NCBI GenBank assembly: GCA_965261325.1
Contig: CBDHCU010000001.1
Span: forward strand, 191,200-255,199
Direction of reading: 5' to 3'
DNA length: 64,000 nucleotides
DNA from: Dehalococcoidia bacterium
Lineage (GTDB): Bacteria > Chloroflexota > Dehalococcoidia > Lucifugimonadales > CAJWER01
Shown here: in pieces, positions 434 through 35,476 of the stretch
Position numbering within the stretch: the first letter of the stretch is position 1
How the letters are laid out: every line of letters begins with the position of its first letter
Position numbers and translations under genes: made by a program
The notes under the pieces: generated by a model
Databases searched by the model: none
What the model was told of the DNA's origin: nothing
Seen by the model: the letters and a program-made list of their open reading frames with translations, nothing else

Positions 434-1741
434 TCATCCAGACGCTCTCGGCCTTGGGCGTGGTCCCGGGTTCGCGGGAGCGGCGGCGCTTGGGCGAAGT
501 TTTCTTCTGATAGACCTGGGGTATGCCGGGGCGTACTCCCAGATGTATTTGCCGTACGCGTCTGGGACCTCGCCTGAGATCCAGTAGCGGACTTCGTCGT
601 CTTCGTCGTTCTCCTTGTCTTTGCCGTGGAAGACGGCGGCTACCTCGTCGTATGCCTGGACGAACTTGTGGATTGGGTGGGACGGGTCGCGCTGGGCTTC
701 GGCGATCTTGCGGTCGATGTCGTAGCAGCCGCGGTGGTCGTTCGTGTCGTCTGCGTCGGCGGGGCCGGGGATGGGTTCCCGCCCCGTATCGAGTACGGGG
801 CAGGCTCTTCTCGGGAATGACGGAGCACCCTCACCCTCACCCCAGCCCTCTCCCGTCAAGGGAGAGGGGGACGGCGGGAGCCCGTCCTCATCCCCGCCGC
901 CCTGGATACCGGGTTCCGCCGGTATGACGGTCAGGTCTGCTTCGTCGGTGCTGGGGATGGGTTCCCGCTTTCGCGGGAATGACGATCCGTCGGGCGGGAA
1001 TGACCCTTCGACTGCGCTCAGGGCAGGCTCTTCGGCGGGGCTCAGGGCAGGCTCAACTGGAAGGGAGCCGGAGCGGGCGATCTCGTCGCGGGCTATGTGT
1101 CCGAGGAGCTCGCTGGCGGCATCGACCCTCTGGCGGGGCCTGAAGCCGCGGACTACGCCGTGCATGACGTGCATGAGGAAGCTGACGACGGTCTTGCCGT
1201 GGTCGGTGCTCCCGTGGACGATGCCCGTGACGCGGGGGTCGTGGGCGAGGGATGGGGCGGCGAGGGCCGAGGCGAGGTATTCGAGGGCCTCGTGGCGCGC
1301 GCGGGCGGTTTTGGCGCAGTCGGCGTCCGGCCGGGGATGGGTTCCCGTCGCCACGGGAATGACGGTGGTGTCGCCACGGGAACGACGGGTGGTGTCGCCA
1401 CTGGAACGACGGGTGGTGTCGCCACTGGAACGACGGGTGGTGTCGCCACTGGAACGACGGGTGGTGGTGTCGCGGGTGCGCTTGCGGAGTATGACGTGGT
1501 TGCATTCGAGGCCGGTGAGCTGGGCTATGTATTCGGAGACGAGCCCGGGAGCGATGGCGTGGACCTGCTCGGCGGCTTCGAGCCTGTGGCATACTTCGAA
1601 GCCGTCGTCGTTTAGCTTTCCCTCGATGACGTCGAGGTAGAAGCGGACGATGGTCTCGCCGTTGTTGGTCTCGCGGCGGACGATGTCCGCGAGTGTGGGC
1701 GGCTCGGACTGTTCGGTGTTGCGTTCTTTGTTATGGCTCAT
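434..1741 (-). CDS. IS-linked paralog P1, unknown function (C-terminal tail out of frame relative to P2/P3)
   Basis: 435-aa ORF. It is highly similar to 3464..4882 and 21715..23149 in its N-terminal, middle and C-terminal blocks. The G-run at 492-494 is one base shorter than in P2 and P3, so the conserved tail ...KRSRSREPGTTPKAESIW.KRPFDKMREAGIPRPSRFKIWV (ancestral stop at 366-368) is lost. Confidence 0.7.
   Translation of the reverse strand: MSHNKERNTEQSEPPTLADIVRRETNNGETIVRFYLDVIEGKLNDDGFEVCHRLEAAEQVHAIAPGLVSEYIAQLTGLECNHVILRKRTRDTTTRRSSGDTTRRSSGDTTRRSSGDTTRRSRGDTTVIPVATGTHPRPDADCAKTARARHEALEYLASALAAPSLAHDPRVTGIVHGSTDHGKTVVSFLMHVMHGVVRGFRPRQRVDAASELLGHIARDEIARSGSLPVEPALSPAEEPALSAVEGSFPPDGSSFPRKREPIPSTDEADLTVIPAEPGIQGGGDEDGLPPSPSPLTGEGWGEGEGAPSFPRRACPVLDTGREPIPGPADADDTNDHRGCYDIDRKIAEAQRDPSHPIHKFVQAYDEVAAVFHGKDKENDEDDEVRYWISGEVPDAYGKYIWEYAPAYPRSIRRKLRPSAAAPANPGPRPRPRASG
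1347..1468. repeat. 24-bp tandem repeat (about 5 units) inside P1, encoding TTRRSSGD octapeptides
   Basis: GTCGCCAC(G/T)GGAA(T/C)GACGG(G)TGGT is repeated head to tail. The unit is the right arm of an R1 hairpin (TTCCCGT CGCC ACGGGAA). Confidence 0.9.
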
Positions 1742-1778: not shown

Positions 1779-1820
1779 GGGGTTGGACTTGCGATCTACA
1801 ACGACAGGGCGGGTTTAAAA

Positions 1821-3266
1821 CCATCTGCTCCAACTAATTGATAAAAAGAACCGTCCTTTCCTTTGGGTAGTCCTCCTTTGGATAGTATCAGGATAAGACT
1901 ACTCCAAAGGAGGGACAGAGCGAAATGTCCACCAGTACCGGGGACGATACAGCCACCATCGGGAGCATAGAGGAGTTTCTTCAGCAGTGTTTGAAGGACA
2001 TGGAGCCAGACCACAGTCTCAAGGGCCCTGGCAGGCCGCGCGTCCTGCCCGCAATGGCTCTGTGGGCAGGGCTGCTGGTCTGCGTCCTGAGAGGCTTCGG
2101 CAGCCAATTGGCGGTGTGGCGTCTTATCTCGGAACGCGGACTCTGGTTCTTCCCCCGATTCCCGGTTACAGACCAAGCGGTCTACAAGAGGCTCCATAGC
2201 GCGGGAACCAAGCCATTGGAGAGACTCTTCGAGCAGATCAGCGGCGTATTGGCACAACGATTGCAGGGTGTGGTAACGGAGAAGCTGGCGCCATTCGCCG
2301 AGGGCGTGGTGTGCATAGACGAGAGTACACTGGACGCCATGTCGAGAAGGCTTCCGCCTCTGAGAGAGATTCCCCAAGGCGATAGCCGTCTGCTCCCTGG
2401 CAAGCTGGCTGGCGTGTTCGACGTGAGAGGCCAGCAGTGGCGGACCGTCATGTTTCAGCCGGACCCACATCAGAACGAGAAGGTGTTGGCGCGGAAGTTG
2501 GTGGAAGACCTGCCAGCGGGAACACTGGTGGTCGCAGACTTGGGATACTTCGGCTTCGCCTGGTTCGACTGGCTCACGGACAGGGGTTACCACTGGCTGA
2601 GCAGGCTGAGAGCAAAGACCAGCTACAAGGTGATACATACCTTCTACCATCGGGGCGACGTCTTCGATGGCATCGTGTGGCTGGGAGCCCATCGCGCCGA
2701 CCGGGCCAAACACGCCGTTCGGCTGGTGACTTTCAGACAAGGCAATACGCTGCGCCGCTACATCACCAACGTTCGGGAGCCTCACACATTCCCGATTGCA
2801 TCCATGGCCGAGGTCTACGCTCGCAGGTGGGACATCGAGATGGCGCTCAAGTTGGTCAAGCAACACCTCAAGCTGCGTCTTCTGTGGTCCGCCAAGTTGG
2901 TGGTGATCCAGCAACAGATATGGGCGACGTTGATAATCTCGCAGATTCTTCAGTCGATGCGGCTTGAGATAGCCCACAGGGCCGGGGTGGACCCGTTCGA
3001 GGTGTCCATCGGCCTGCTGGTCGAGTATGCGCCACAGTATGCCTATGAAGGCAGGGACCCTGTGAAGATCTTCGTGGAGCGAGGGCGTGAGCTGGGCTTC
3101 ATTCGACCTTCCCGTAGAATGCTCATCCACGCCCCGAACATACCTGTCGAGGCAGTCCTGCCTGCGCCACCCGGACTGGCACTCATTCGCACCCCTCGAT
3201 ATGCCAACCGCAAGTGTCCCGGACCCGCTGCAAACATCTTGAGAGTGAATTAGTTGGAGCAGATGG
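1821..3266 (+). mobile_element. IS4-family insertion sequence, copy B (complete, 1446 bp)
   Basis: Perfect 19-bp terminal inverted repeats CCATCTGCTCCAACTAATT at 1821-1839 and 3248-3266 (reverse complement). It carries a single transposase ORF. Flanks are GGTTTAAAA (left) and GGTTTGAAA (right), consistent with a 9-bp target duplication. Confidence 0.9.
1925..3253 (+). CDS. IS4-family DDE transposase (442 aa)
   Basis: Candidate DDE residues lie in ...VVCIDEST..., ...LVVADLGYFGF... and ...YARRWDIEMALKLVK. The last segment fits the IS4 Y-(2)-R-(3)-E-(6)-K signature. It differs by 1 aa from the copy at 20106..21434. Confidence 0.9.
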   Translation: MSTSTGDDTATIGSIEEFLQQCLKDMEPDHSLKGPGRPRVLPAMALWAGLLVCVLRGFGSQLAVWRLISERGLWFFPRFPVTDQAVYKRLHSAGTKPLERLFEQISGVLAQRLQGVVTEKLAPFAEGVVCIDESTLDAMSRRLPPLREIPQGDSRLLPGKLAGVFDVRGQQWRTVMFQPDPHQNEKVLARKLVEDLPAGTLVVADLGYFGFAWFDWLTDRGYHWLSRLRAKTSYKVIHTFYHRGDVFDGIVWLGAHRADRAKHAVRLVTFRQGNTLRRYITNVREPHTFPIASMAEVYARRWDIEMALKLVKQHLKLRLLWSAKLVVIQQQIWATLIISQILQSMRLEIAHRAGVDPFEVSIGLLVEYAPQYAYEGRDPVKIFVERGRELGFIRPSRRMLIHAPNIPVEAVLPAPPGLALIRTPRYANRKCPGPAANILRVN

Positions 3267-3463
3267 GGTTTGAAACCCGCCCCTACAGCCGGGCACGCAA
3301 ACATCCCCCTCATCCCTTCGACAAGCTCAGGGCAGGCTCCGCCCCCCTCAAGACCGGGGATGGGTTCCCGCCTCCGCGGGAATGACGGCCATGCGCGCGG
3401 GAATGACGGTTGTGGTGTGCAAGTTGTTGGCCCCGCTCGGCCCGGTTGGGCGGCGGGGCGGGT

Positions 3464-4882
3464 TCAGACCCAGATTTTGAACCGGCTGGGTCTGGGGATG
3501 CCGGCCTCGCGCATCTTGTCGAAGGGCCGCTTCATCCAGATGCTCTCGGCCTTGGGCGTAGTCCCGGGTTCGCGGGAGCGGCTTCGCTTGGGGCGAAGTT
3601 TTCTTCTGATCGACCTGGGGTATGCCGGGGCGTACTCCCAGATGTATTTGCCGTAGGCGTCTGGGACCTCGCCTGAGATCCAGTAGCGGACTTCGTCGTC
3701 TTCGTCGTTCTCCTTGTCTTTGCCGTGGAAGACGGCGGCTACCTCGTCGTATGCCTGGACGAACTTGTGGATGGGGTGGGCCGGGTCGCGCTGGGCTTCG
3801 GCGATCTTGCGGTCTATGTCGTAGCAGCGGCGCTGTGAGTCAGTGGGCTCCGGGTCGTCTTCACCCTCACCCCAGCCCTCTCCCGTCAAGGGAGAGGGGG
3901 ACGGCGGGAGCCCGCCCTCATCCCCGCCGCCCTGGAAAGCCGGTGTGACGGTCAGGTCTGCTTCGTCGGTGCTGGGGATGGGTTCCCGCCCCGTATCGAG
4001 TACGGGGCAGGCTCTTCGCGGGAATGACGGAGCACCCTCACCCTCACCCCAGCCCTCTCCCGTCAAGGGAGAGGGGGACGGCGGGAGCCCGCCCTCATCC
4101 CCGCCGCCCTGGAAAGCCGGTGTGACGGTCAGGTCTGCTTCGTCGGTGCCGGGGATGGGTTCCCGCCTTCGCGGGAATGACGATGAAGCTGCCGGGAATG
4201 ACGGAGCACCCTCACCCTCTCCCGTCGAGGGAGAGGGGGGTACGGAGCCGGAGCGGGCGATCTCGTCGCGGGCTATGTGGCCGAGGAGCTCGCTGGCGGC
4301 ATCGACCCTCTGGCGGGGCCTGAAGCCGCGGACTACGCCGTGCATGACGTGCATGAGGAAGCTGACGACGGTCTTGCCGTGGTCGGTGCTCTCGTGGACG
4401 ATGCCGGCTACGCGCGGGTCGACGGCGAGGGATGGGGCGGCGAGGGCGGATGCGAGGTATTCGAGGGCTTCGTGGCGCGCGCGGGCGGTTTTGGCGCAGT
4501 CGGCGTCCGGCCGGGGATGGGTTCCCGTCGCCACGGGAATGACGGTGGTGTCGCCACGGGAACGACGGGTGGTGTCGTCACGGGAACGACGGGTGGCGTC
4601 GTCACGGGAATGACGGGTGGTGTCGCGGGTGCGCTTGCGGAGTATGACGTGGTTGCATTCGAGGCCGGTGAGCTGGGCTATGTATTCGGAGACGAGCCCG
4701 GGAGCGATGGCGTGGATCTGCTCGGCGGCTTCGAGCCTGTGGCAGACTTCGAAGCCTTCGTCGTTTAGCTTTCCCTCGATGACGTCGAGGTAGAAGCGGA
4801 CGATGGTCTCGCCGTTGTTGGTCTCTCGGCGGACGATGTCCGCTAGTGTGGGTGGCTCGGACTGTTCGGTGTTGTCGTACAT
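3464..4882 (-). CDS. IS-linked paralog P2, unknown function (the only apparently intact copy, 472 aa)
   Basis: I start it at ATG 4882 (MYDNTEQSEPPTLADIV...), directly behind a consensus promoter. The track ORF extends to 5191 only because it reads through MITE sequence. The N-terminal, middle and C-terminal blocks are conserved with P1 and P3. Confidence 0.75.
   Translation of the reverse strand: MYDNTEQSEPPTLADIVRRETNNGETIVRFYLDVIEGKLNDEGFEVCHRLEAAEQIHAIAPGLVSEYIAQLTGLECNHVILRKRTRDTTRHSRDDATRRSRDDTTRRSRGDTTVIPVATGTHPRPDADCAKTARARHEALEYLASALAAPSLAVDPRVAGIVHESTDHGKTVVSFLMHVMHGVVRGFRPRQRVDAASELLGHIARDEIARSGSVPPSPSTGEGEGAPSFPAASSSFPRRREPIPGTDEADLTVTPAFQGGGDEGGLPPSPSPLTGEGWGEGEGAPSFPRRACPVLDTGREPIPSTDEADLTVTPAFQGGGDEGGLPPSPSPLTGEGWGEGEDDPEPTDSQRRCYDIDRKIAEAQRDPAHPIHKFVQAYDEVAAVFHGKDKENDEDDEVRYWISGEVPDAYGKYIWEYAPAYPRSIRRKLRPKRSRSREPGTTPKAESIWMKRPFDKMREAGIPRPSRFKIWV
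3861..4165. repeat. In-frame tandem duplication (period 177 bp = 59 codons) inside the P2 linker
   Basis: CCCAGCCCTCTCCCGTCAAGGGAGAGGGGGACGGCGGGAGCCCGCCCTCATCCCCGCCGCCCTGGAAAGCCGGTGTGACGGTCAGGTCTGCTTCGTCGGTGC.GGGGATGGGTTCCCGCC occurs from 3871 and again from 4048. Confidence 0.85.
4527..4622. repeat. 24-bp tandem repeat (4 units) inside P2
   Basis: Same unit as 1347..1468 but a different copy number and sequence variants (TTRHSRDD/ATRRSRDD/TTRRSRGD). Confidence 0.85.
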
Positions 4883-4889
4883 GGGTTCT

Positions 4890-4917
4890 ATTATAGGGGT
4901 AAATGGAGGGTTGTCAA
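4890..4917 (-). promoter_or_regulatory. Consensus sigma70-type promoter of P2 (TTGACA, 16-nt spacer, TATAAT), ATG 7 nt after the -10 (leaderless-type)
   Basis: Minus strand reads cacTTGACAaccctccatttaccccTATAATagaacccATGtacgac. Confidence 0.6.
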
Positions 4918-5000
4918 GTGGGATTTTCAGCCAAGAGGGCACGGAGGGGGAAGTTTTGAGTTTTGGGGGAGAGTTTCGGGAGAGAGGAGTTACGCAAGTT

Positions 5001-5100
5001 ATACCAATTTGGCGTGATGCCGCCGTATATGTGCGGCCAGGGAGTGGGTTCCCGCCTTCGCGGGAATGACGGCCAATTTGGCGTGATGCCGCCATATAGG
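5001..5100 (+). repeat. MITE1-related rearranged copy with short-loop R1 core
   Basis: ATACCAATTTGGCGTGATGCCGCCGTATATGTGCGGCCAGGGAGTGGGTTCCCGCCTTCGCGGGAATGACGG is followed by a direct repeat of CCAATTTGGCGTGATGCCGCCATATA. Confidence 0.7.
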
Positions 5101-5111
5101 GGCTGAAAGAG

Positions 5112-5225
5112 CAGGGCCTTTCCAAAGTCCGTTCGTGGTGAGCCTGTCGAACCACAATTGGGGCCTTCGACAAGCTCAGGCCGAACGGCAAGGTACGACC
5201 CTATCTCAACAATGGAAAGGCCCTG
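5112..5225 (+). mobile_element. MITE4 copy a (114 bp, 13-bp perfect TIR CAGGGCCTTTCCA)
   Basis: Near-identical to 30951..31063 (inverted), 41670..41783 and 53014..53127. Confidence 0.85.
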
Positions 5226-5340
5226 GCGCCAAACGCGTCCGGTAGCATGACCGGCTGTTTGATTGTAGAATGGTGCCGCTTCCGGCGATGGACCATCGCG
5301 GTCGTCGATCGGGGCAATACGGCAGGCAGGCTAGGTCGTC

Positions 5341-13694: not shown

Positions 13695-14822
13695 ATGATG
13701 AAAATGGCGAAGTATGTCGTGGTCTTTGGGGCTGTGTTGGCTATGGTTGCGGCCATCGCCTGCTCCGACGGCGTGTCCCAGTCGGACTACGATGCGCTCC
13801 AGGCCGAGTTGGATGCCGCCAATGCCATGGGCGGGGAGATGATGGGAAGCCGCCTCGACACGGTCAAGCAGCGCGGCAAGGTCATATGCGCCAGCCGCAA
13901 CGACGTGCCGGGCTATGGCTCTCTCGACGCAGCCGGTAACAACGTTGGGTTCGACATCGACCTCTGCCACGCGCTTGCGGCGGCAGTCCTGGGGGACCCC
14001 AACGCCATCGATATCCGGCTGATCACGGCCGCAGAGCGCGGCCCCACGATCCAGTCGGGCGAGGTGGACATGCTCGTGCGCACGGTCACCTGGACCACTT
14101 CGCGCGACGCCTCCTGGGGCAATTACGCCCAGACGATGTTCTACGACGGCCAGGGCTTCATGGTCCCGGCGAAGCTGGGCGTCACGAGCGCCTATGAGCT
14201 CGGCGGGGCTGCCGTCTGCGTGACCGCGGGCACAACCACCGAGCTGAACATGGCCGACTTCTTCCGGCAGAACGGGCTGGAATACAACCCCAAGGTCTAC
14301 GAGGACACCGATATCGTTCTGGAGTCCTACAAGAGCGGCTCCTGCGACGTGTTCACGAACGACCGTTCGCAGCTCGCCGCGCTTCGCAGCGCTCTGCCCA
14401 ATCCCGAGGAGCACATAATCCTGCCGGAGACGATCTCCGAGGAGCCCCTTGGCCCGGTTGTGCCTCACGGTGACGATCAGTGGTTTGACATCGTGAAGAC
14501 CGTGATGAGCATACTCATCTACGGCGAGGCATACGGCATAAACTCGGGCAACGTGGACGCAATGGCCACCGGCGACAACGTGAAGGCAAAGCGTCTGCTC
14601 GGTACCGAGGGTTCCTTGGGCCAGGAGGAGATCGGTCTCGACAAGAACGTCGGCCAGACCATAATCAAGGCCGTGGGCAACTACGGCGAGATATATGAGC
14701 GCAACCTCGGAGCGGGCGGCATCGACCTGCCCCGCGAGGGCGGCCGGAACGCGCTCTGGTCCGACGCTCCCTGCTCCGATTGTCCTAAGGGCGGGCAGAT
14801 CTACGCTGCGCCTCTGAGATAG
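13695..14822 (+). CDS. aapJ: Amino-acid ABC transporter substrate-binding lipoprotein (AapJ/BztA-like), copy 1
   Basis: Lipobox AIACSDG. It has a paralog at 14874..15983 and is followed by two ~400-aa permeases and an ATPase. GGAGGAGG RBS. Confidence 0.8.
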   Translation: MMKMAKYVVVFGAVLAMVAAIACSDGVSQSDYDALQAELDAANAMGGEMMGSRLDTVKQRGKVICASRNDVPGYGSLDAAGNNVGFDIDLCHALAAAVLGDPNAIDIRLITAAERGPTIQSGEVDMLVRTVTWTTSRDASWGNYAQTMFYDGQGFMVPAKLGVTSAYELGGAAVCVTAGTTTELNMADFFRQNGLEYNPKVYEDTDIVLESYKSGSCDVFTNDRSQLAALRSALPNPEEHIILPETISEEPLGPVVPHGDDQWFDIVKTVMSILIYGEAYGINSGNVDAMATGDNVKAKRLLGTEGSLGQEEIGLDKNVGQTIIKAVGNYGEIYERNLGAGGIDLPREGGRNALWSDAPCSDCPKGGQIYAAPLR

Positions 14823-14873
14823 AGACGAGGGTCGAGCTCGCCGCGAAACGTCGTGGCGAGCTCGACTTGAAAA

Positions 14874-15983
14874 ATGTTCCGAGCTGACTGCAGTTCTATT
14901 GCGGCTGTGAGTCTCATTTTGGCTCTGGCAGCGCTTGTTGCCTGCTCAGACGGGAATGGCGAGCCCGATGCGGGCTCTGCCGGGGCAGCAGACGCGAAGA
15001 CCGAGAATTCGCGCCTGGGCGCTGTCCGAGCTCGCGGCCGTGTCGTCTGCGCCGCCGTTACCGACACGCCGGGGTTCGGCTTCCTGGACGAGACGGGCAG
15101 GACCACCGGATTCGACATCGACCTCTGCCGCGCGGTGGCGGCCGCCGTCCTGGGTGACGCCGACGCCATCGAAGTGCGGGTGATCACCGCCACCGAGCGC
15201 GGCCCCATTCTCCAGTCGGGCGAAGTGGACATGCTGGTGTTCATCACCACATGGACGACCTCCCGGGACACCTACTGGGGCAACTTCGTTCAGACCATGT
15301 TCTACGACGGCCAGGGCTTCATGGCGCCGGCAAGCCTGGGGGTCGAAAGCTCGTACGGGCTCGGTGGCGCATCGGTGTGCGTCACCAGCGGCACCACGAC
15401 CGAGTTGAACATGGCCGACTTTTTCAGGCAGAACAACCTGGAGTATGGCGCCAAGGTCTTCGAAGAGTCGCAGGTGGCTTTGGAGGCGTACGGGAGCGGC
15501 GCCTGCGACGCGTTCACCAGCGACCGTTCGTCCCTCACCGCCCTGCGCAGCACCCTCGCCAATCCGCAGGACCACGTCATCTTGCCGGAGACCATCTCCG
15601 AGGAGCCGCTTGGACCCGTCGTGCCCCACGGCGACGAGCAGTGGTTCGACATCGTGAAGGCCGTCATGGGCATGCTCATCTATGCCGAGGCCTACGGCGT
15701 CCACTCGGGCAACGTGGACGCTATGGCCGCCAGCGACGACGTGAAGGTGAAGCGCCTGCTGGGCACCGAGGGGGCCTTCGGCCAGGAGGGGCTTGGGCTG
15801 GACCCGGAGGTGGGCCAGACGGTCATCGAGGCTGTGGGCAACTACGGCCAGATATACGACCGCCACTTTGGGCCGGGCGGCATAGACCTGCCCCGCGAGG
15901 GAAGCCGGAACGCGCTGTGGGCCGCCGCTCCCTGCTCCGATTGTCCGAAGGGCGGGCAGATCTACGCCGCTCCCCTGCGCTAG
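14874..15983 (+). CDS. aapJ: Amino-acid ABC transporter substrate-binding lipoprotein (AapJ/BztA-like), copy 2
   Basis: Clear paralog of 13695..14822 (for example ...WTTSRD..WGN..QTMFYDGQGFM..., and it ends ...CPKGGQIYAAPLR). Confidence 0.8.
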   Translation: MFRADCSSIAAVSLILALAALVACSDGNGEPDAGSAGAADAKTENSRLGAVRARGRVVCAAVTDTPGFGFLDETGRTTGFDIDLCRAVAAAVLGDADAIEVRVITATERGPILQSGEVDMLVFITTWTTSRDTYWGNFVQTMFYDGQGFMAPASLGVESSYGLGGASVCVTSGTTTELNMADFFRQNNLEYGAKVFEESQVALEAYGSGACDAFTSDRSSLTALRSTLANPQDHVILPETISEEPLGPVVPHGDEQWFDIVKAVMGMLIYAEAYGVHSGNVDAMAASDDVKVKRLLGTEGAFGQEGLGLDPEVGQTVIEAVGNYGQIYDRHFGPGGIDLPREGSRNALWAAAPCSDCPKGGQIYAAPLR

Positions 15984-16019
15984 CAGCAGGCTTTACGCGC
16001 GAGCCGACCGAGTCTCCCA

Positions 16020-16400
16020 TCAGTCGTTCCCGCGAAAAGAGACCTTTGCGTTACCCCTCTCCCTCGACGGGACCTTGACGGGAGAGGGCTGGGTTGGGGG
16101 TGAAGAGTCGGCTTCCGCAAGCTGGGCCCCATATTCCGGCGCCTGGATTCCGGCCCCGTATCGGGGTACGGGACATGCTTGCGCCGGAATCACCATGGCC
16201 CTGCGAAGGCCACATAAGGGAATGAAATGGGCGCCATCTTTTGGCAAGGTCGAGGCCGACCCCGCCCCAGGTCCCTCGCTGAGGCCTCGGGACGACATGG
16301 CGGGGTGACCGGGCGTTGCTTTCGCAGGAATGATCTGGGTTATGCAAGGGTCTCCGAAGGCGGGAACCCACCCGCTGCAAGGCGCGCCGGCCATGACCAG
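16020..16400. repeat. Pile of degenerate palindromic repeat units (R1 variants, R6 GGGAGAGGG-type, R5 ATGGCC..GGCCACATAAGGGAATGAAATGG)
   Basis: Read directly. It includes a reversed half-R1 (GTCGTTCCCGCGAAAAGAGAC), an R1 variant with arms ATTCCGGC/GCCGGAAT, and R5 at 16194..16229. Confidence 0.75.
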
Positions 16401-16459
16401 GGGAGCAGTCCGTCACGCCGCCGGTCCAGGGCGGCGGCGAATCTGGCCGGCGCACTGTC

Positions 16460-17677
16460 TTGTGGGTATTGCCTGCTTATGGCATGATGGGCGCCACGAT
16501 GACATCGTCGCTCACGTATCAGGGGATACCCGTATGGCGGCACGCCAGGATTCTGGGTTGGACTGCCCAGATCGTTTCGGCCATCGTCGTAATCGCGGCG
16601 GTTGCCTTCTTCATCTACAACCTCACTTCCGCAATTGAAGAGCGGGATATCCCTCGTGGCTGGTCGTTCCTGTCCAGGGAGTACTCCACACCCATAAGCG
16701 AGTCGCTCCTGCCATACGAGGAGAGCGACACGTTCGCCTATGCGTTCCTGGTAGCCGCAACGAACACGCTGACCCTGTCCCTGGTAGGCGTGGCTTTCGC
16801 CACGGTGCTGGGGATATTCATAGGCTCCGCGCAGCTGGCTGGCAACTGGATACTGAGCCGGGCGGCCAGGGTGTTCGTGGAATTCTTCCGAAACGTGCCG
16901 CTAATCGTGCAGCTATTCTTCTGGTACATCGTGCTGCTTGGGCTCCCGCAGGTCCTGGTGGGATTCGTGTGGTTCGACGCGCTGTTCCTGAACAACTCAG
17001 GGCTGTCGTTCCCGTGGCTCAAGGGGCAGGAGACGGTCTGGGTCTGGGCAATCTGCGCCCTGCTTGCGATAGTAGCGGCGATAGTTGTTCATCGCGTTGC
17101 CTTGCGTCGGGAGCTCGGAACCGGGCGTCCTTCGTACCCCGTTATCTGGGCAGCCGTCACAGCCGGTGTCATCGGCGCCGTTGCGTGGTTTGCCGTGGGC
17201 GGCGCCCCGCTGGTTGTCGATGTGCCGTACCCTGAGGGGCGCTTTGGGCACCTGAAGGGCGGCGTCACCATCTCCATCGAGCTTGCGGCCCTGCTTGTGG
17301 GGCTCATCATCTACACCTCGTCCTTCATCGCCGAGATCGTAAGGGCGGGGCTGCAGTCGGTGTCGCGCGGGCAGGGTGAGGCATCCCGCTCGCTGGGCCT
17401 GAACACCCTGGAGACCCTGAGATACGTGACCTTCCCGCAGGCCCTTAGGGTTATCGTGCCGCCGCTCATCAGCCAGTACCTGAACCTGACGAAGAACAGC
17501 AGCCTGGCCATCGCCATCGGCTACGCGGACCTGACGAGCGTAGCGAAGACGATGACCCAGACGGCCCCGGCCATCTCGATCTTCCTGATCATCATGGGCG
17601 TGTACCTGCTGTTCAGCCTCGGCTATTCCCTAATCGGCAATCTCTACAACCGCCACATCCAGTTCACGGGGGGTTAG
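16460..17677 (+). CDS. aapQ: Amino-acid ABC transporter permease (AapQ/BztB-like); true start possibly 16499
   Basis: Multi-TM protein with the ...SSFIAEIVRAGLQSV..GQ.EA..SLGL... permease EAA-loop signature. Confidence 0.85.
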   Translation: MWVLPAYGMMGATMTSSLTYQGIPVWRHARILGWTAQIVSAIVVIAAVAFFIYNLTSAIEERDIPRGWSFLSREYSTPISESLLPYEESDTFAYAFLVAATNTLTLSLVGVAFATVLGIFIGSAQLAGNWILSRAARVFVEFFRNVPLIVQLFFWYIVLLGLPQVLVGFVWFDALFLNNSGLSFPWLKGQETVWVWAICALLAIVAAIVVHRVALRRELGTGRPSYPVIWAAVTAGVIGAVAWFAVGGAPLVVDVPYPEGRFGHLKGGVTISIELAALLVGLIIYTSSFIAEIVRAGLQSVSRGQGEASRSLGLNTLETLRYVTFPQALRVIVPPLISQYLNLTKNSSLAIAIGYADLTSVAKTMTQTAPAISIFLIIMGVYLLFSLGYSLIGNLYNRHIQFTGG

Positions 17678-17683
17678 GGGCCT

Positions 17684-18916
17684 TTGGCCGCCGCGACCGA
17701 GCATACGGAGTCCCTGGCGCCTCCCCGCTCCGAAACGGGGTGGATTGGGTGGGCCCGGCTCAACCTGTTCGGTAGTTGGTCCAGCTCGATCGTTACGGTT
17801 GTCTCGGCGCCGCTCGCCCTCTGGGCCTGCTGGAGCGGGTTGAGCTGGATCTTCACGACCGCAGACTGGACATTGGTCACGAGCCGGCCCCAGCAGTACG
17901 TCATCGGCGTATACCCTACCGAGCACGCCTGGCGCCCGCTTGTGGGGTGGCTGATGGTCTCGGTGCTGTTCGGCCTGGCGGCAGGGATGTGGAAGGGGGC
18001 CGCCGAGCGAATCGCAATGGGATATGGCGTAGTGGCCCTGGTGGCGGGGCTCCTGCCTTATGGAATGCTGCCCGAGGGCGTCAATATGCCCCTGGACGTG
18101 CGCCTTCTGGTCCTGGGCAACCTGCCTGTCCTGGCCGTCTCGTACTGGCTAGGCACCACCGAAAGGGTGGGGCGGCCACGCTGGCTCATAGTCGGCGGAC
18201 TGGCGGCCTACGTCCTGTTCCTTCTCTTGCTGGTCGGGCTGCCGGGGGTGAGCGCCATGGAGCCCGTGTCGCCGAGGGTGTGGGGCGGGCTGATGCTCAA
18301 CCTGATACTGTCGGTGTCGGGCATAGTGCTGTCCTTCCCCATCGGCGTGGCGCTGGCGCTCGGGCGGCGCAGCAACCTGCCCGTGGTGAAGCTAATGTGC
18401 GTGGCGTTCATAGAGATATTCCGGGGCGTCCCGCTGATCACGCTGCTGTTCGTGTCCCAGGTCCTCGTGCCGCTGGCCCTGCCGCAGAACTTTCCGGTCG
18501 ACTCGGTCACACGTGCTGCGATCGTCATCACCCTTTTCTCGTCGGCGTACATGGCCGAGAACTTGAGGGGTGGACTCCAGGGACTGCCCCCCGGGCAGGC
18601 CGAGGCGGCCAGGGCGCTTGGACTTCCGGGCTGGCAAGTGACGGTGCTGATACTGCTGCCCCAGGCCATACGCAACGTGATACCGACCATAGTCGGTCAA
18701 TTCATCGCGCTCTTCAAAGACACGAGCCTCGTCTACATTATCGGGATGCTCGACATCCTCGAGATAGGACGAGCGATCGTCCAGGGCAACCCGGAATTCA
18801 TTAACAATGGGCGAGAGTTGTATCTGTTCGTAGCCGTGGTCTTCTGGGTGTTCACGTACACCATGTCGTATGCCAGCCGGAACCTCGAAAGGCACCTGGG
18901 CGTGGGTGAGCGGTAA
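17684..18916 (+). CDS. aapM: Amino-acid ABC transporter permease (AapM/BztC-like)
   Basis: ...FSSAYMAENLRGGLQGLPPGQAEAARALGL... EAA loop. TTG start. Confidence 0.85.
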   Translation: MAAATEHTESLAPPRSETGWIGWARLNLFGSWSSSIVTVVSAPLALWACWSGLSWIFTTADWTLVTSRPQQYVIGVYPTEHAWRPLVGWLMVSVLFGLAAGMWKGAAERIAMGYGVVALVAGLLPYGMLPEGVNMPLDVRLLVLGNLPVLAVSYWLGTTERVGRPRWLIVGGLAAYVLFLLLLVGLPGVSAMEPVSPRVWGGLMLNLILSVSGIVLSFPIGVALALGRRSNLPVVKLMCVAFIEIFRGVPLITLLFVSQVLVPLALPQNFPVDSVTRAAIVITLFSSAYMAENLRGGLQGLPPGQAEAARALGLPGWQVTVLILLPQAIRNVIPTIVGQFIALFKDTSLVYIIGMLDILEIGRAIVQGNPEFINNGRELYLFVAVVFWVFTYTMSYASRNLERHLGVGER

Positions 18917-18929
18917 GCTAGGGAGCAAT

Positions 18930-19715
<786 letters not shown>

Positions 19716-19914
19716 GAGGCCGGAGCCGGAGCAGCGATGTGGGGAGGGCCTGGACCAGGCGACTATCTCCAGAAGTGCTTCGACAAGCTCAGCACGAGCG
19801 GGACTATACAAGGATTGTTCGCCCTGAGCCTGTCGAAGGGCAGTTCTCCGCCGATACAGGTGACTGTGAGATAACCCCCTAGGCGTCTGGAATCGGCCCA
19901 CTGCCTTCGGTGCT

Positions 19915-20039
19915 GACCGGACGGTGCCGCGCTGGGCCTTGTACAGGCGGAATATCAGCCGGGATATGGTCGTCTTGCCGCTCCCGGTGCGTTGGTCACC
20001 CCCAACGTATTCCCGCCGGGTTGTCTCTTGCACAACCAA
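19915..20039 (-). pseudogene. Possible relic of an ABC-exporter ATPase (Walker A region only)
   Basis: Minus-strand translation ...GGDQRTGSGKTTISRLIFRLYKAQRGTV resembles an ABC Walker A block. It has no upstream or downstream continuation and is bounded by repeats and IS copy C. Confidence 0.25.
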
Positions 20040-20092
20040 GTCCCGGTGTCAGTCGGCCCGCCTAGCCGGGTGGGCAGAGGGCGGGTTTGAAA

Positions 20093-21538
20093 CCATCTGC
20101 TCCAACTAATTCACTCTCAAGATGTTTGCAGCGGGTCCGGGACACTTGCGGTTGGCATATCGAGGGGTGCGAATGAGTGCCAGTCCGGGTGGCGCAGGCA
20201 GGACTGCCTCGACAGGTATGTTCGGGGCGTGGATGAGCATTCTACGGGAAGGTCGAATGAAGCCCAGCTCACGCCCTCGCTCCACGAAGATCTTCACAGG
20301 GTCCCTGCCTTCATAGGCATACTGTGGCGCATACTCGACCAGCAGGCCGATGGACACCTCGAACGGGTCCACCCCGGCCCTGTGGGCTATCTCAAGCCGC
20401 ATCGACTGAAGAATCTGCGAGATTATCAACGTCGCCCATATCTGTTGCTGGATCACCACCAACTTGGCGGACCACAGAAGACGCAGCTTGAGGTGTTGCT
20501 TGACCAACTTGAGCGCCATCTCGATGTCCCACCTGCGAGCGTAGACCTCGGCCATGGATGCAATCGGGAATGTGTGAGGCTCCCGAACGTTGGTGATGTA
20601 GCGGCGCAGCGTATTGCCTTGTCTGAAAGTCACCAGCCGAACGGCGTGTTTGGCCCGGTCGGCGCGATGGGCTCCCAGCCACACGAGGCCATCGAAGACG
20701 TCGCCCCGATGGTAGAAGGTATGTATCACCTTGTAGCTGGTCTTTGCTCTCAGCCTGCTCAGCCAGTGGTAACCCCTGTCCGTGAGCCAGTCGAACCAGG
20801 CGAAGCCGAAGTATCCCAAGTCTGCGACCACCAGTGTTCCCGCTGGCAGGTCTTCCACCAACTTCCGCGCCAACACCTTCTCGTTCTGATGTGGGTCCGG
20901 CTGAAACATGACGGTCCGCCACTGCTGGCCTCTCACGTCGAACACGCCAGCCAGCTTGCCAGGGAGCAGACGGCTATCGCCTTGGGGAATCTCTCTCAGA
21001 GGCGGAAGCCTTCTCGACATGGCGTCCAGTGTACTCTCGTCTATGCACACCACGCCCTCGGCGAATGGCGCCAGCTTCTCCGTTACCACACCCTGCAATC
21101 GTTGTGCCAATACGCCGCTGATCTGCTCGAAGAGTCTCTCCAATGGCTTGGTTCCCGCGCTATGGAGCCTCTTGTAGACCGCTTGGTCTGTAACCGGGAA
21201 TCGGGGGAAGAACCAGAGTCCGCGTTCCGAGATAAGACGCCACACCGCCAATTGGCTGCCGAAGCCTCTCAGGACGCAGACCAGCAGCCCTGCCCACAGA
21301 GCCATTGCGGGCAGGACGCGCGGCCTGCCAGGGCCCTTGAGACTGTGGTCTGGCTCCATGTCCTTCAAACACTGCTGAAGAAACTCCTCTATGCTCCCGA
21401 TGGTGGCTGTATCGTCCCCGGTACTGGTGGACATTTCGCTCTGTCCCTCCTTTGGAGTAGTCTTATCCTGATACTATCCAAAGGAGGACTACCCAAAGGA
21501 AAGGACGGTTCTTTTTATCAATTAGTTGGAGCAGATGG
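20093..21538 (-). mobile_element. IS4-family insertion sequence, copy C (complete, 1446 bp, inverted relative to copies A/B)
   Basis: Same 19-bp TIRs as copy B. Both flanks read TTTGAAACC on the + strand (= TTTCAAACC on the IS sense strand), consistent with a 9-bp target duplication inside GGGCGGGTTTGAAACCCGCCC. Confidence 0.9.
20106..21434 (-). CDS. IS4-family DDE transposase (442 aa)
   Basis: Differs from 1925..3253 by one residue (DGLVWLG versus DGIVWLG). Confidence 0.9.
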   Translation of the reverse strand: MSTSTGDDTATIGSIEEFLQQCLKDMEPDHSLKGPGRPRVLPAMALWAGLLVCVLRGFGSQLAVWRLISERGLWFFPRFPVTDQAVYKRLHSAGTKPLERLFEQISGVLAQRLQGVVTEKLAPFAEGVVCIDESTLDAMSRRLPPLREIPQGDSRLLPGKLAGVFDVRGQQWRTVMFQPDPHQNEKVLARKLVEDLPAGTLVVADLGYFGFAWFDWLTDRGYHWLSRLRAKTSYKVIHTFYHRGDVFDGLVWLGAHRADRAKHAVRLVTFRQGNTLRRYITNVREPHTFPIASMAEVYARRWDIEMALKLVKQHLKLRLLWSAKLVVIQQQIWATLIISQILQSMRLEIAHRAGVDPFEVSIGLLVEYAPQYAYEGRDPVKIFVERGRELGFIRPSRRMLIHAPNIPVEAVLPAPPGLALIRTPRYANRKCPGPAANILRVN

Positions 21539-21714
21539 GGTTTGAAACCCGCCCCTACAGGCGGGAACGCAAACATCCCCCTCATCCCTTCGACAAGCTC
21601 AGGGCAGGCTCCACCTTCTCCCGCCAGGGGAGAAGGGGCAAGAGGCCGCCCGGCGATCTGAGCTGGCTGACATTGTGTTGGCCCCGCTTGGCCCGGTTGG
21701 ACGGCGGGGCGGGT

Positions 21715-23149
21715 TCAGACCCAGATTTTGAACCGGCTGGGTCTGGGGATGCCGGCCTCGCGCATCTTGTCGAAGGGCCGCTTTATCCAGATGCTCTCGG
21801 CCTTGGGCGTAGTCCCGGGTTCGCGGGAGCGGCGGCGCTTGGGGCGAAGTCGTCTTCGGATCGACTTGGGATATGCCGGGGCGTACTCCCAGATGTATTT
21901 GCCGTACGCGTCTGGGACCTCGCCGGAGATCCAGTAGCGGACTTCGTCGTCTTCGTCGTTCTCCTTGTCTTCGCCATGGAAGGCGGCGGCCACCTCGTCG
22001 TATGCCTGGACGAACTTGTGGATTGGGTGGGCCGGGTCGCGCTGGGCTTCTGCGATTTTGCGGTCGATGTCGTAGCAGCCGCGGTCGGGGTCGGTGAGCT
22101 CCGGGTCGTCTTCTTCGGCGGGGCCGGGGATGGGGATGGATTCCCGCGAAGGCGGGAATGACGATTCGGTTGCGGTTGCAGTGTGCGGATCGTCTGCGTT
22201 GGCGGTGCTGGGGATGGGTTCCCGCCCCGTATCGAGTACGGGGCAGGCTCTTCGCGGGAATGACGGAGCACCCTCACCCTCACCCCAGCCCTCTCCCGTC
22301 AAGGGAGAGGGGGACGGCGGGAGCCCGTCCTCATCCCCGCCGCCCTGGAAAGCCGGTGTGACGGTCAGGTCTGCTTCGGCGGGGGCGGGGATGGGTTCCC
22401 GCTTTCGCGGGAATGACGGTGCGGCCTCACCCTCACCCTCACCCTCTCCCGTCGAGGGAGAGGGGGGTACGGAGCCGGAGCGGGCTAGCTCGTCGCGGGC
22501 TATGTGTCCGAGGGAGCTCGCTGGCGGCATCGACCCTCTGGCGGGGCCTGAAGCCGCGGACTACGCCGTGCATGACGTGGAGCAGGAAGCTGACGACGGT
22601 CTTGCCGTGGTCGGTGCTCCCGTGGACGATGCCGGCGACGCGGGGGTCGTGGGCAAGGGATGGGGTGGCGAGGGCCGAGGCGAGGTATTCGAGGGCTTCG
22701 TGGCGCGCACGGGCGGTTTTGGCGCAGTCGGCGTCCGACCGGGGATGGGTTCCCGTCGCCACGGGAATGACGGTGGTGTCGCCACGGGAACGACGGGTGG
22801 TGTCGCCACGGGAACTACCGGTGGTGTCGTCACGGGAACTACCGGTGGTGTCGTCACGGGAACTACCGGTGGTGTCGCGGGTGCGCTTGCGGAGTATGGC
22901 GTGGTTGCATTCGAGGCCGGTGAGCTGGGCTATGTATTCGGAGACGAGGCCGGGTGCGATGGCGTGGATCTGCTCGGCGGCTTCGAGCCTGTGGCAGACT
23001 TCGAAGCCGTCGTCGTTTAGCTTTCCCTCGATGACGTCGAGGTAGAAGCGGACGATGGTCTCGCCGTTGTTGGTTTCGCGGCGGACGATGTCCGCTAGTG
23101 TGGGTGGCTCGGACTGTTCGGTGTTGCGTCGTTTGTTCTTATGGCTCAT
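21715..23149 (-). pseudogene. IS-linked paralog P3, frameshifted mid-gene
   Basis: Two overlapping ORFs (22439..23149 and 21715..22530) together reproduce the P1/P2 architecture. An extra G in the run at 22512-22514 (CCGAGGGAGCTC versus CCGAGGAGCTC in P1 and P2) breaks the frame at ...AASEL|LGHIARDE. Confidence 0.75.
22755..22873. repeat. 24-bp tandem repeat (about 5 units) inside P3
   Basis: The units encode TTGSSRDD/TTGSSRGD/TTRRSRGD. Same position as in P1 and P2 but with different unit variants. Confidence 0.85.
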
Positions 23150-23156
23150 ACGTTCT

Positions 23157-23186
23157 ACTATGAGGGATCGGGTGGGGGTTTGTCAA
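23157..23186 (-). promoter_or_regulatory. Putative promoter of P3 (TTGACA ... CATAGT), identical to the P1 promoter
   Basis: Same sequence as 1749..1778. Homology with the other copies ends just beyond the -35, where MITE2 copy b begins. Confidence 0.5.
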
Positions 23187-23199
23187 GGGGGATTTTTCA

Positions 23200-23343
23200 C
23201 CCAGATCCACCACCTAATTTGGACGGATGGCGTGACGGACTGCCTCTGAGGCTATGGCTGTGCACCTTGCCGGGGATGGGTTCCCGCCCCCGACTGCTCG
23301 GGGGCAGGCTCTTCGCGGGAATGACGGCGGTGGGGGATTTGGG
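23200..23343 (+). mobile_element. MITE2 copy b (144 bp)
   Basis: Near-identical to 8551..8694 and 58168..58311. Confidence 0.85.
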
Positions 23344-23357
23344 TCCCCTGCCTCTCC

Positions 23358-23386
23358 TTGACTGTTTCCATAGCCAAGCCTAATAA
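23358..23386 (+). promoter_or_regulatory. Candidate promoter upstream of pheS (TTGACT, 17-nt spacer, TAATAA)
   Basis: cTTGACTgtttccatagccaagccTAATAAt lies about 45 nt upstream of the pheS ATG. Confidence 0.35.
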
Positions 23387-23430
23387 TTGATTGGTGCTGC
23401 TACTCTCTCCGTGCCAGATCGACGTGTCCC

Positions 23431-24486: not shown

Positions 24487-24524
24487 AGAAAGCGCCCGAA
24501 CGCAGCGGGACTCAGGTTCTATAG

Positions 24525-34264: not shown

Positions 34265-35254
34265 TCAGTTCATCGCCGCTTCGTTCGCCGCCTGAATCAT
34301 GGCGTGGATGTACCCGTAGCAGTAAGCGAACCCGACCTGCTGCGCCTCGTCCCCGTCGATGTCCGGGACATGGTCGGGCATGAGCATGTACGGGTACCCC
34401 ACCTCCCTGTAGGTGCGGACGGCCCTCAGCATGTCCACGTCGCCCTCGTCGGGAAAGACCTCCACGAAGTCCAGCACGCCGCCCTTGATGTTGCGGAAGT
34501 GCACGTTGAAGATCTTGTTCCGGCTGCCGAAGTAGCGGATTACGTCGTATATCTCCTCGCTCGGCCTTTCCAGCATCTCGGATACGGTGTCCTGGCAGAA
34601 GTTCAGGCCGTGATAGGGGTTTTCGTACATGGCGACGAACTTCTCGAGCCCGCGTACCGTGCCCATGACTCGCGCCACGCCCCGGTACTCGTAGTCCTTG
34701 ATGCCGGGGTCCTGCGGGTGGCATGCCAGCCGCACCTTGTACTCGCTCGCCACGGGGACGACGCGCGCCAGGAAGTAGTCGATCCGCTCCCACATCGTGT
34801 CCGCGCCGGCCGCGCCGCCCTCGAACTCCGGCAGGGACTGGTCGAGGTCGGCGTATTTGAAAGACGACAGGGTTGCGCCGCCTCTGCCTGATCGAGGCCC
34901 CGTTCGCAGGTGTCCCAGGATGGTGACGTTGTATAGCAGCGCCCTCAGGCCCGCCTCCGACGCTATGCGGATGATCTCGCAGAAGCCGTCCAGCTCCCGC
35001 TCTCTCTCGTCGCTGGGGCCCAGGAACAGGTGGGGCATGCCGCTGTTGAACGCGTCCCTGGAGCTGACGGGAGAGTGGATGGACTCCACGGTGATCCCAT
35101 ACTTCGCGTACTTCTCCCGAATCGACGCCAGGAGATCGACGGTCCACTCGCTCCAGTGCTCCGTGGGCGTCACGTCGACGTGCTCCACACCCAGCTGCGC
35201 AAGCTGTCGTATATCCGTTTCATGGCGCGCCTTGAATTGCGTTCCCACATACAT
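34265..35254 (-). CDS. uxuA: Mannonate dehydratase
   Basis: I start it at ATG 35254, after AAAGGGAGGG. Blocks such as ...NVHFRNIKGGVLDFVEVFPDEGDVDM... and ...GYPYMLMPDHVP... are typical of UxuA. The track ORF extension to 35437 is R1 repeat sequence. Confidence 0.8.
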   Translation of the reverse strand: MYVGTQFKARHETDIRQLAQLGVEHVDVTPTEHWSEWTVDLLASIREKYAKYGITVESIHSPVSSRDAFNSGMPHLFLGPSDERERELDGFCEIIRIASEAGLRALLYNVTILGHLRTGPRSGRGGATLSSFKYADLDQSLPEFEGGAAGADTMWERIDYFLARVVPVASEYKVRLACHPQDPGIKDYEYRGVARVMGTVRGLEKFVAMYENPYHGLNFCQDTVSEMLERPSEEIYDVIRYFGSRNKIFNVHFRNIKGGVLDFVEVFPDEGDVDMLRAVRTYREVGYPYMLMPDHVPDIDGDEAQQVGFAYCYGYIHAMIQAANEAAMN

Positions 35255-35388
35255 GAGGAACCCTCCCTTTGCGGTCGCTCGACTCCACACTGGAACTGCC
35301 CCAGCGGAGATGGTGCGGAGCATAGATTCGGCGCGCGAGAGTGTCAACTCGCATCCGGTTTCGGGTCCCCGAGTTAGGCCCGATGATT

Positions 35389-35476
35389 CCTGCCCCGTAT
35401 CGAGTACGGGGCAGGCTTTTCGCGGGAATGACGGCAATCCGAGGGTTCTGTCATATTTAGATTGAAGCAGTACTAG
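35389..35476 (+). repeat. MITE3 copy c (right part only)
   Basis: CCCCGTATCGAGTACGGGGCAGGCTTTTCGCGGGAATGACGGCAATCCGAGGGTTCTGTCATATTTAGATTGAAGCAGTACTAG. The left TIR is absent. Confidence 0.7.

Follow-up and report, generated by a model that had tools for sequence, protein, structure and literature searches.

What keeps a gene open when much of it consists of palindromic repeats, some of them also scattered through the non-coding DNA around it, and how did those repeats come to be there? The question is raised by a 64,000-nucleotide stretch of contig CBDHCU010000001.1 from a Dehalococcoidia bacterium, referred to here as the window, in which positions 3833-4252 lie within P2, one of three paralogous genes (P1, P2 and P3, all on the minus strand). 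An earlier annotation made from the letters alone, the sequence-only reading, described this region as a coding linker composed of palindromic units, R1 and R6, inserted in frame in the manner of Rickettsia palindromic elements (RPEs). The composition of the linker and its frame were confirmed, whereas the RPE-like mode of insertion was not. We consider it probable, though well short of certain, that the region is a repeat-derived disordered linker, in which old intragenic repetitive extragenic palindromes (REPs) have been kept and reshuffled by in-phase duplication or recombination within a multigene family.

Palindromic units inside the P2 coding sequence

Alignment of 120 homologs resolved three conserved blocks and two hypervariable linkers, with 3833-4252 corresponding to linker 2. 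The arrangement in P2 and the positions of its two paralogs are as follows.

3464..4879, minus strand: P2 coding sequence, 471 aa, comprising N block, linker 1, middle block, linker 2 and C block (ATG start; match to database protein P0001)
4700..4855, minus strand: N block, first copy of a ~50-aa four-helix domain (domain hidden Markov model (HMM), residues 9-60, E=2e-25)
4475..4648, minus strand: linker 1, 174 nt, made of 24-nt tandem repeats of R1 3' half-sites and a complete R1 hairpin (4518-4544), reading TRRSRxDT repeats and TVIPVATGTHPRP
4262..4474, minus strand: middle block, holding the second copy of the four-helix domain (residues 154-203; domain HMM E=4e-24)
3824..4261, minus strand: linker 2, 438 nt, 146 codons, bounded by conserved anchors
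3464..3823, minus strand: C block, helical (YDIDRK...RFKIWV)
434..1741, minus strand: paralog P1; linker 2 spans 725-1081, and the C-terminal tail is altered by a 1-nt deletion close to the 3' end
21715..23149, minus strand: paralog P3, linker 2 at 22075-22488; two open reading frames (ORFs) through a 1-nt insertion in the middle block

Within linker 2 of P2, in the direction of the gene, the units map as follows.

4215..4237, minus strand: R6' hairpin (CCCTCTCCCTCGACGGGAGAGGG), reading PSPSTGEGEG
4193..4203, minus strand: additional R1 half-site (CGTCATTCCCG), reading SFPAAS
4156..4182, minus strand: R1 short form (CGTC-ATTCCCGC-GAAG-GCGGGAAC-CCA), reading SFPRRREPIP
4109..4127, minus strand: degenerate R1b (CGTCACACCGGCTTTCCAG), reading TVTPAFQ, its palindrome lost
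4053..4075, minus strand: R6 hairpin, reading PSPSPLTGEGWGEGE
3979..4029, minus strand: R1 long form, with a 28-nt loop holding the nested hairpin GCCCCGTA-CTCGA-TACGGGGC, reading SFPRRACPVLDTGREPIP
3932..3950, minus strand: second degenerate R1b
3876..3898, minus strand: second R6 hairpin
3861..4167, minus strand: 130-nt segment present in two copies (3861-3990 and 4038-4167), 99% identical, at a spacing of 177 nt (59 codons)

The units are 27-52 nt long and in frame with P2, and the units and translations quoted in the sequence-only reading are present. Folding confirmed a 7-bp stem with a 4-nt loop for R1, a 9-bp stem with a 5-nt loop for R6 and the nested 8-bp hairpin of the R1 long form. 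The R1b palindrome is intact in P1, at 902-929. The short R1 had been given as SFPRKREPIP, which is correct for P1 and P3 but not for P2, where it is SFPRRREPIP.

For the linker to be coding, two possibilities raised with the original description had to be considered, namely that the protein ends before the linker and the C block is a separate gene, or that the linker frames are open by chance through GC-rich composition; neither was borne out. Measured between conserved nucleotide anchors, linker 2 spans 357, 438 and 414 nt in P1, P2 and P3, and 327, 213, 396 and 240 nt in four other loci, while linker 1 ranges from 90 to 201 nt across the same seven gene copies. All 14 lengths taken from the DNA of these copies are multiples of three, and the frame is indeed kept across the paralogs. 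In linker 2, stops are absent from the gene frame and from one antisense frame and number 1-8 in the other four, and the codon score is highest for the gene frame; the open frame thus does not result from GC content alone. Neither the middle nor the C block has a start codon of its own, and both lie in phase 0 from the N-terminal ATG in the seven genes. In comparisons of P2 with six homologs, mismatches at codon positions 1, 2 and 3 numbered 15, 19 and 83 in the middle block (83 of 117 in third positions) and 11, 10 and 37 in the C block (37 of 58). In distant relatives, the C-terminal end (RSPPW, PPKIWV) is conserved beyond REP arrays of up to roughly 250-300 residues. The lack of internal starts, the linker lengths, the third-position substitutions and the conserved ends past the arrays thus indicate one gene. 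The opposite view, that the linker is a non-coding spacer between small genes and stays open through GC-rich palindromes poor in stops, draws on the stop-free antisense frame (an antisense ORF at 3843..4613 on the plus strand spans linker 2), on the repeat DNA upstream of the true start, which is likewise open in frame and produces a 575-aa ORF, and on a linker codon score that is about neutral. It conflicts, however, with all four of the lines just given, the third-position substitutions of the C block being in the frame set by the N-terminal ATG, and with the stops in four of six frames. As an annotation artefact the linker is largely refuted, and we give this view hardly any credence.

The region 3833-4252 is contained within that 575-aa ORF (3464..5191, minus strand). 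The P2 start was placed at the ATG at 4879, from which P0001 is 100% identical across 471 residues, and the following element lies just upstream.

4890..4917, minus strand: sigma-70-type promoter, TTGACA-16-TATAAT, 12/12 consensus matches, its 3' end 10 nt before the P2 ATG

This spacing implies a leaderless or near-leaderless messenger RNA. Given the promoter position, the ATG at 4879 and the identity to P0001, the repeat-rich stretch that is open in frame from the P2 ATG up to 5191 (4880-5191) is probably untranslated. A similar promoter is found upstream of P1, of P3 and of a distant homolog in another locus (L005, at 4060).

Two copies of the four-helix domain are present in 216 of the 257 family proteins that match the domain HMM. 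An AlphaFold model of 4655-4858 (68 residues of the N block including the domain, with a diverse alignment) has four helices and a predicted local distance difference test (pLDDT) score of 96.3. The full-length model shows no secondary structure in either linker, with a pLDDT <50 in both, and disorder-promoting residues make up 80-84% of linker 2; these values agree with the hypervariable, disordered linker proposed at the outset, although the modelling evidence is weak as the full-length model is poor throughout (mean pLDDT 51). A Pfam search with the P protein gave only a sub-threshold DUF6894 match, and searches of PHROGs and NCBIfam, and of Pfam with ten distant relatives, gave no significant match. 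A PDB sequence profile search with the whole P protein found no match, and with the four-helix domain it found only a weak HEAT/alphaRep-like motif (E=0.016). Foldseek comparisons of the full model and the pLDDT-96 domain model with PDB and viral structures returned nothing better than E=3.5. P2 is an uncharacterised cytoplasmic protein without a match to known families by sequence or fold.

R1, R6 and known palindromic repeats

The R1 head was matched 22 times in the window (0.09 expected by chance) and the R6 pattern 10 times (0 expected). There are 23 well-formed R1 copies in the 64 kb, of which ~12 fall between the genes of a rough gene map, away from the paralogs, and one further degenerate R1 lies at the 5' end of the ORF at 34265..35437. 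Two short-form copies stand on either side of P2.

3360..3387, plus strand: R1 short form, non-coding, ~75 nt 3' of the P2 stop codon
5044..5071, plus strand: R1 short form, ~165 nt upstream of the P2 start; open in the gene frame, yet upstream of the promoter

All six R6 copies of the window sit within the linkers of P1, P2 and P3, and non-coding R6 was seen only beside homologous genes elsewhere (L002, L005 and L001). The proposal that the linker units are those that fill the intergenic DNA therefore stands for R1 and falls for R6. The EPALS units of P1 resemble another repeat located 3' of the genes.

In its sequence, R1 conforms to the CGTC-tagged REPs described by Di Nocera et al. 2013, a class that has a CGTC terminal tag, an 8-9-bp stem with A-T pairs in the first two positions, a 4-5-nt loop and a CCA tail, and to which Rickettsia RPE-4 and RPE-6 are also assigned (PMC3733652). 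The R1 tag strand carries CGTC(A/G)TTCCCG in all copies, and all copies have the CCA tail as GGGAAC-CCA-TCCCC. The 8-bp stem begins AT, with ATTCCCGC pairing with GCGGGAAT; the last base is C in many copies, which leaves a 7-bp fold. The loop of the short form is 4 nt (GAAG, GAAA or GGCG), whereas that of the long form is 27-28 nt, contains a nested hairpin and occurs in two sequence variants. R1 is also dispersed, with ~12 copies outside the paralogs in the 64 kb and further copies in related loci. Thus R1 shares with CGTC REPs the tag, the AT-starting 8-bp stem, in its short form the 4-nt loop, the CCA tail, a high-copy intergenic distribution and an additional in-frame intragenic occurrence; intragenic GTAG and CGTC REPs, including clusters that encode 43-82 aa, have been described (PMC3733652). 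It departs from them in its Dehalococcoidia-type host (CGTC repeats are listed in five phyla other than that of the R1 host; PMC3733652), in the long form with its 27-28-nt loop and nested hairpin, in the stacking of the P units within one multi-copy family (146 codons in linker 2, 13 units in a distant homolog), and in a uniform orientation that follows GC skew.

All 23 well-formed R1 copies of the window point the same way, and outside the P genes the CGTC strand is on the C-rich (negative GC-skew) strand in 29/29 copies from nine regions, regardless of the direction of the neighbouring gene, which suggests a tie to the replication strand. In P3, the R1 at 22136-22163 has a 4-nt loop inverted relative to all others between flanks in the usual orientation, suggesting a hairpin flip.

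Apart from the P family, no R1 or R6 unit was found in the other genes of the window or of eight related loci (L001-L008; ~215 kb in all). One R1 copy in L003 falls within a called 50-aa gene (5103-5255) that may be spurious. Upstream repeat arrays can be open in frame and inflate ORFs, as at 4880-5191 in the window (575 vs a real 471 aa) and at ~9900-10376 in L001. A genome-collection scan that included two R6-derived peptide patterns returned at least 597 matching stretches unrelated to the P protein.

RPEs are, according to the review of Ogata et al. 2000 in PMC10969869, ~100-150 bp long and occur as single insertions in many unrelated housekeeping genes. The same review describes them as thought to be placed where the fold tolerates them, and like the P units they are palindromic and in frame within protein-coding genes. 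The P-linker units, on the other hand, are 27-52 nt long, stacked, confined to one family and probably for the most part inherited or reshuffled, so that they correspond to RPEs neither in size nor in the spread over many genes. A second precedent is provided by RAYT (tnpA-REP) genes of subclass 2.4, in which Quentin et al. 2018 described REPs in frame inside the gene (PMC6006769). There too, REPs of the genome recur in frame within one protein family, in a peripheral region that varies, and REPs also flank the genes of that family. The P genes differ in lacking an HUH/Y1 domain or any detectable enzyme motif, in having at least 20 copies and in carrying CGTC-type repeats; moreover, R1 flanks P2 on both sides in the same orientation, whereas the REPs of a REPtron are typically inverted pairs. 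The P locus is accordingly not a member of the RPE family and, for want of a Y1 transposase, not a REPtron.

Tandem-repeat or low-complexity linkers in multigene families evolve by slippage and gene conversion. The P linkers resemble these in their whole-codon length variation and conserved flanks, but their units are the dispersed palindromic elements of the genome. No paper turned up in literature searches for the peptides encoded by the repeats. In-frame palindromic repeats as such are already known from Rickettsia and other bacteria; the P linkers differ from the documented cases in the host lineage, the stacking density, the confinement to a single high-copy family, the strict sense orientation and the recurrence across a superfamily.

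Origin of the mosaic

Among close relatives a given unit type is always read in one phase, and the units are collinear; the phase is 1 for R1 of linker 2, 0 for R6 and 2 for R1b. In 44 close homologs, R1 of the SFPR..EPIP type (phase 1) and R6 are found exclusively in linker 2, and phase-0 R1 occurs only in linker 1. The unit phases of P1, P2 and P3 are identical, allowing for the P3 frameshift, and in a majority consensus of 96 homologs from several genomes R1 (SSFPRxREPIP) and R1b (TVIPAxxGAGIQ) stand at fixed places. The paralogs had been said to differ in the number, type and order of their units. They do differ by presence or absence and by duplication, but the order is largely collinear, and the length difference between P2 and P3 is mostly the 130-nt segment repeated at 177-nt spacing.

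Linker 1 varies as well. Its 24-nt tandem repeats, at 1347-1466 and 4527-4626, are present in 4.2-5 copies, with 0-7 copies among paralogs, and the complete R1 beside them varies in phase among homologs, reading TVIPVATGTHP, RRSREDGNPSP or CRPRADRDPVP. A candidate 'empty site' in linker 1 of P0083 was rejected when a degenerate hairpin was found in the DNA. Conservation of the linker 1 hairpin beyond that of the coding blocks at the nucleotide level was also rejected, the two being comparable.

The window genome has at least 20 copies of the P gene. A single P3 frameshift outside the linker had been reported, and the 1-nt insertion at ~22530 in the middle block is there; a 1-nt deletion in P1 at ~520, near the 3' end, had gone unmentioned and replaces the conserved C-terminal tail, with similarly changed tails in two further proteins of that genome, P0010 and P0016. 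Unless the indels are errors of assembly, several paralogs seem to be in decay.

The P3 locus (13695-26951) is syntenic with L004 from another assembly, with pheS and pheT on one side and ABC transporter genes on the other, and this synteny indicates that P genes have long been resident and are not mobile cassettes. That the P gene is a mobile element was rejected on the same ground and also because no terminal repeats were seen. Block identity has a median of 90% among paralogs of the window genome and is at most 87% between copies of different genomes. Strong concerted evolution was rejected, since the similarity among the window paralogs exceeds that of P3 to its positional ortholog by a small margin only.

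The association of the family with repeats extends well beyond these loci. A profile search of 1.84 billion representatives gave 328 clusters at E<=0.001. Distant members have two or three domain copies followed by long runs of repeat-derived peptides, among them TVIPAKAGTHPxHP (many times), PSPSTGEGWGEG, SLPRTRYGAG and VRPEPVEG, and the repeat type found in the same linker appears to vary from lineage to lineage. In the DNA of the L005 member, 13 R1 copies are in frame, five of them as a 42-nt tandem run. At least one R1- or R6-type peptide is present in 181 of 268 family proteins, in which R1-type peptides fall into the three sense phases 55, 147 and 252 times (454 in total) and into antisense phases twice. 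Two metagenome scans for further DNA copies found none, and a genome-collection scan found at least one locus with a further copy. Among the relatives listed, a single one is named, a Dehalococcoidia metagenome-assembled genome.

On the account that we favour, palindromic repeats of the host genome (the CGTC-type REPs R1 and R1b, R6 and ALSLSKG-type units) would have entered the P linkers long ago, all in the orientation that has three open reading frames, and would have been translated ever since, the disordered spacer tolerating nearly any peptide rich in proline, glycine, serine or acidic residues. Differences between paralogs would arise mainly from in-phase events, namely slippage duplication and deletion (24 nt in linker 1, 177 nt in linker 2 and 42-nt arrays in L005), recombination or gene conversion between paralogs, and occasional nested additions, and selection on the conserved C block would remove frame-breaking events. 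Since exchanges between in-phase units change the length by whole codons, the frame would be kept without each insertion being a multiple of 3. The relative weight of recombination and fresh insertion is something we infer.

The mosaic might instead be produced by currently mobile repeats that insert independently into each paralog, the survivors being those that are in frame and free of stops. Such a process is favoured by the abundance of R1 and its near identity between intergenic DNA and linker, by the presence of both short and long R1 in the linkers, by a nested unit insertion in L001, by the use of all three sense phases across the superfamily, and by the in-frame REP and RPE insertions documented elsewhere (PMC3733652, PMC10969869, PMC6006769). 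What the close family displays is different: one phase per unit type in a collinear order, core units at fixed positions common to several genomes, a duplication as the largest P2-specific difference, and no units in any other gene of the window or the eight related loci. The RPE pattern of insertions put forward by the sequence-only reading is not supported, in the form given there, by these observations. In addition, antisense units are nearly absent though two of the three antisense phases are open, and the internal units of L003 oppose the local intergenic R1 orientation. We regard ongoing independent insertion as unlikely, if a serious contender. A functional link is a further alternative, in which the hairpins are cis-elements in DNA or messenger RNA, or the protein binds or mobilises the repeats as a REPtron-like partner of CGTC REPs. 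REP-laden linkers recur across the 328-cluster superfamily with apparently lineage-dependent repeat types and a strictly sense orientation, the R1-type hairpin of linker 1 keeps its place in different phases among homologs, and R1 or R6 copies lie on both sides of the genes; besides, one RAYT subclass also has in-frame REPs in its own gene (PMC6006769) and CGTC REPs are reported without a dedicated transposase (PMC3733652). Yet the protein matches no Y1/HUH transposase, nor any Pfam, NCBIfam, PHROG or PDB family, and its sole universally conserved part is the small four-helix domain with its weak HEAT-like motif. The gene is present in at least 20 copies, unlike the usually single-copy RAYT genes, the flanking repeats are direct rather than inverted, conservation of the linker 1 hairpin roughly equals that of the coding blocks, and decay is seen in some units, R1b of P2 among them. 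A functional role of this kind therefore seems improbable to us. Narrower versions, in which the P family is the missing partner of CGTC REPs and its genes are REPtron-like sinks, or in which the hairpins are cis-regulatory and translation drifts between phases, strike us as decidedly improbable.

Several points weigh against the inheritance and reshuffling of old units that we prefer. Translation of linker 2 as part of P2 is something we infer from the DNA, and the low linker pLDDT is weak evidence for the disorder that we presume. That the units travel with the gene is suggested by L003, where the P gene is on the G-rich strand and its internal units are opposite in orientation to the local intergenic R1 copies, but this is the single informative locus; most P genes are on the C-rich strand, where sense coincides with the local intergenic R1 orientation, and strand-specific insertion could also yield a sense bias. 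Fresh insertion clearly takes place now and then: in L001 a unit is nested inside R6 (PSPLTGEGW[EPALSLPKG]EGEEG), all three sense phases are used across the superfamily, and lineages appear to differ in the repeat types of the same linker. Homogenisation is modest, block identity being 91-96% among the paralogs of the window, against 91-93% for P3 and its positional ortholog. Finally, the account gives no reason why the P family alone among the genes examined should collect repeats.

Surroundings of the P genes and implications

An insertion sequence (IS) with a 442-aa DDE_Tnp_1 transposase is present in the window at ~1811-3285 (plus strand), at ~20083-21545 (minus strand) and at 1-~190, where it is cut by the window start. 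It occupies, in either orientation, the centre of a 14+14-bp palindrome, GTAGGGGCGGGTTT-G-AAACCCGCCCCTAC, which is a GTAG-type REP and of which a shorter form of 11+10 bp is intact in L005 near 3660. Each insertion is bordered by what appears to be a ~12-bp duplication. The window insertions with readable flanks lie 100-200 nt 3' of a P gene, and the one at the P3 locus takes the place of two ABC_membrane genes present in L004. Two adjacent ORFs resembling solute-binding proteins, at 13851-14150 and 15012-15311, are 74% identical over 300 nt and represent a tandem duplication unrelated to the linker.

In the P proteins themselves, a disordered segment of 70-180 residues, longer in distant relatives, appears to derive mostly from dispersed palindromic DNA, and the 328-cluster superfamily offers a natural series for the study of how non-coding repeats turn into coding sequence. 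The locus also places CGTC-type REPs in a Dehalococcoidia-type genome. For annotation, it is relevant that repeat arrays lengthen ORFs and that repeat peptide patterns match unrelated stretches. The P genes constitute an uncharacterised high-copy protein family with a putative link to its repeats that can be tested.

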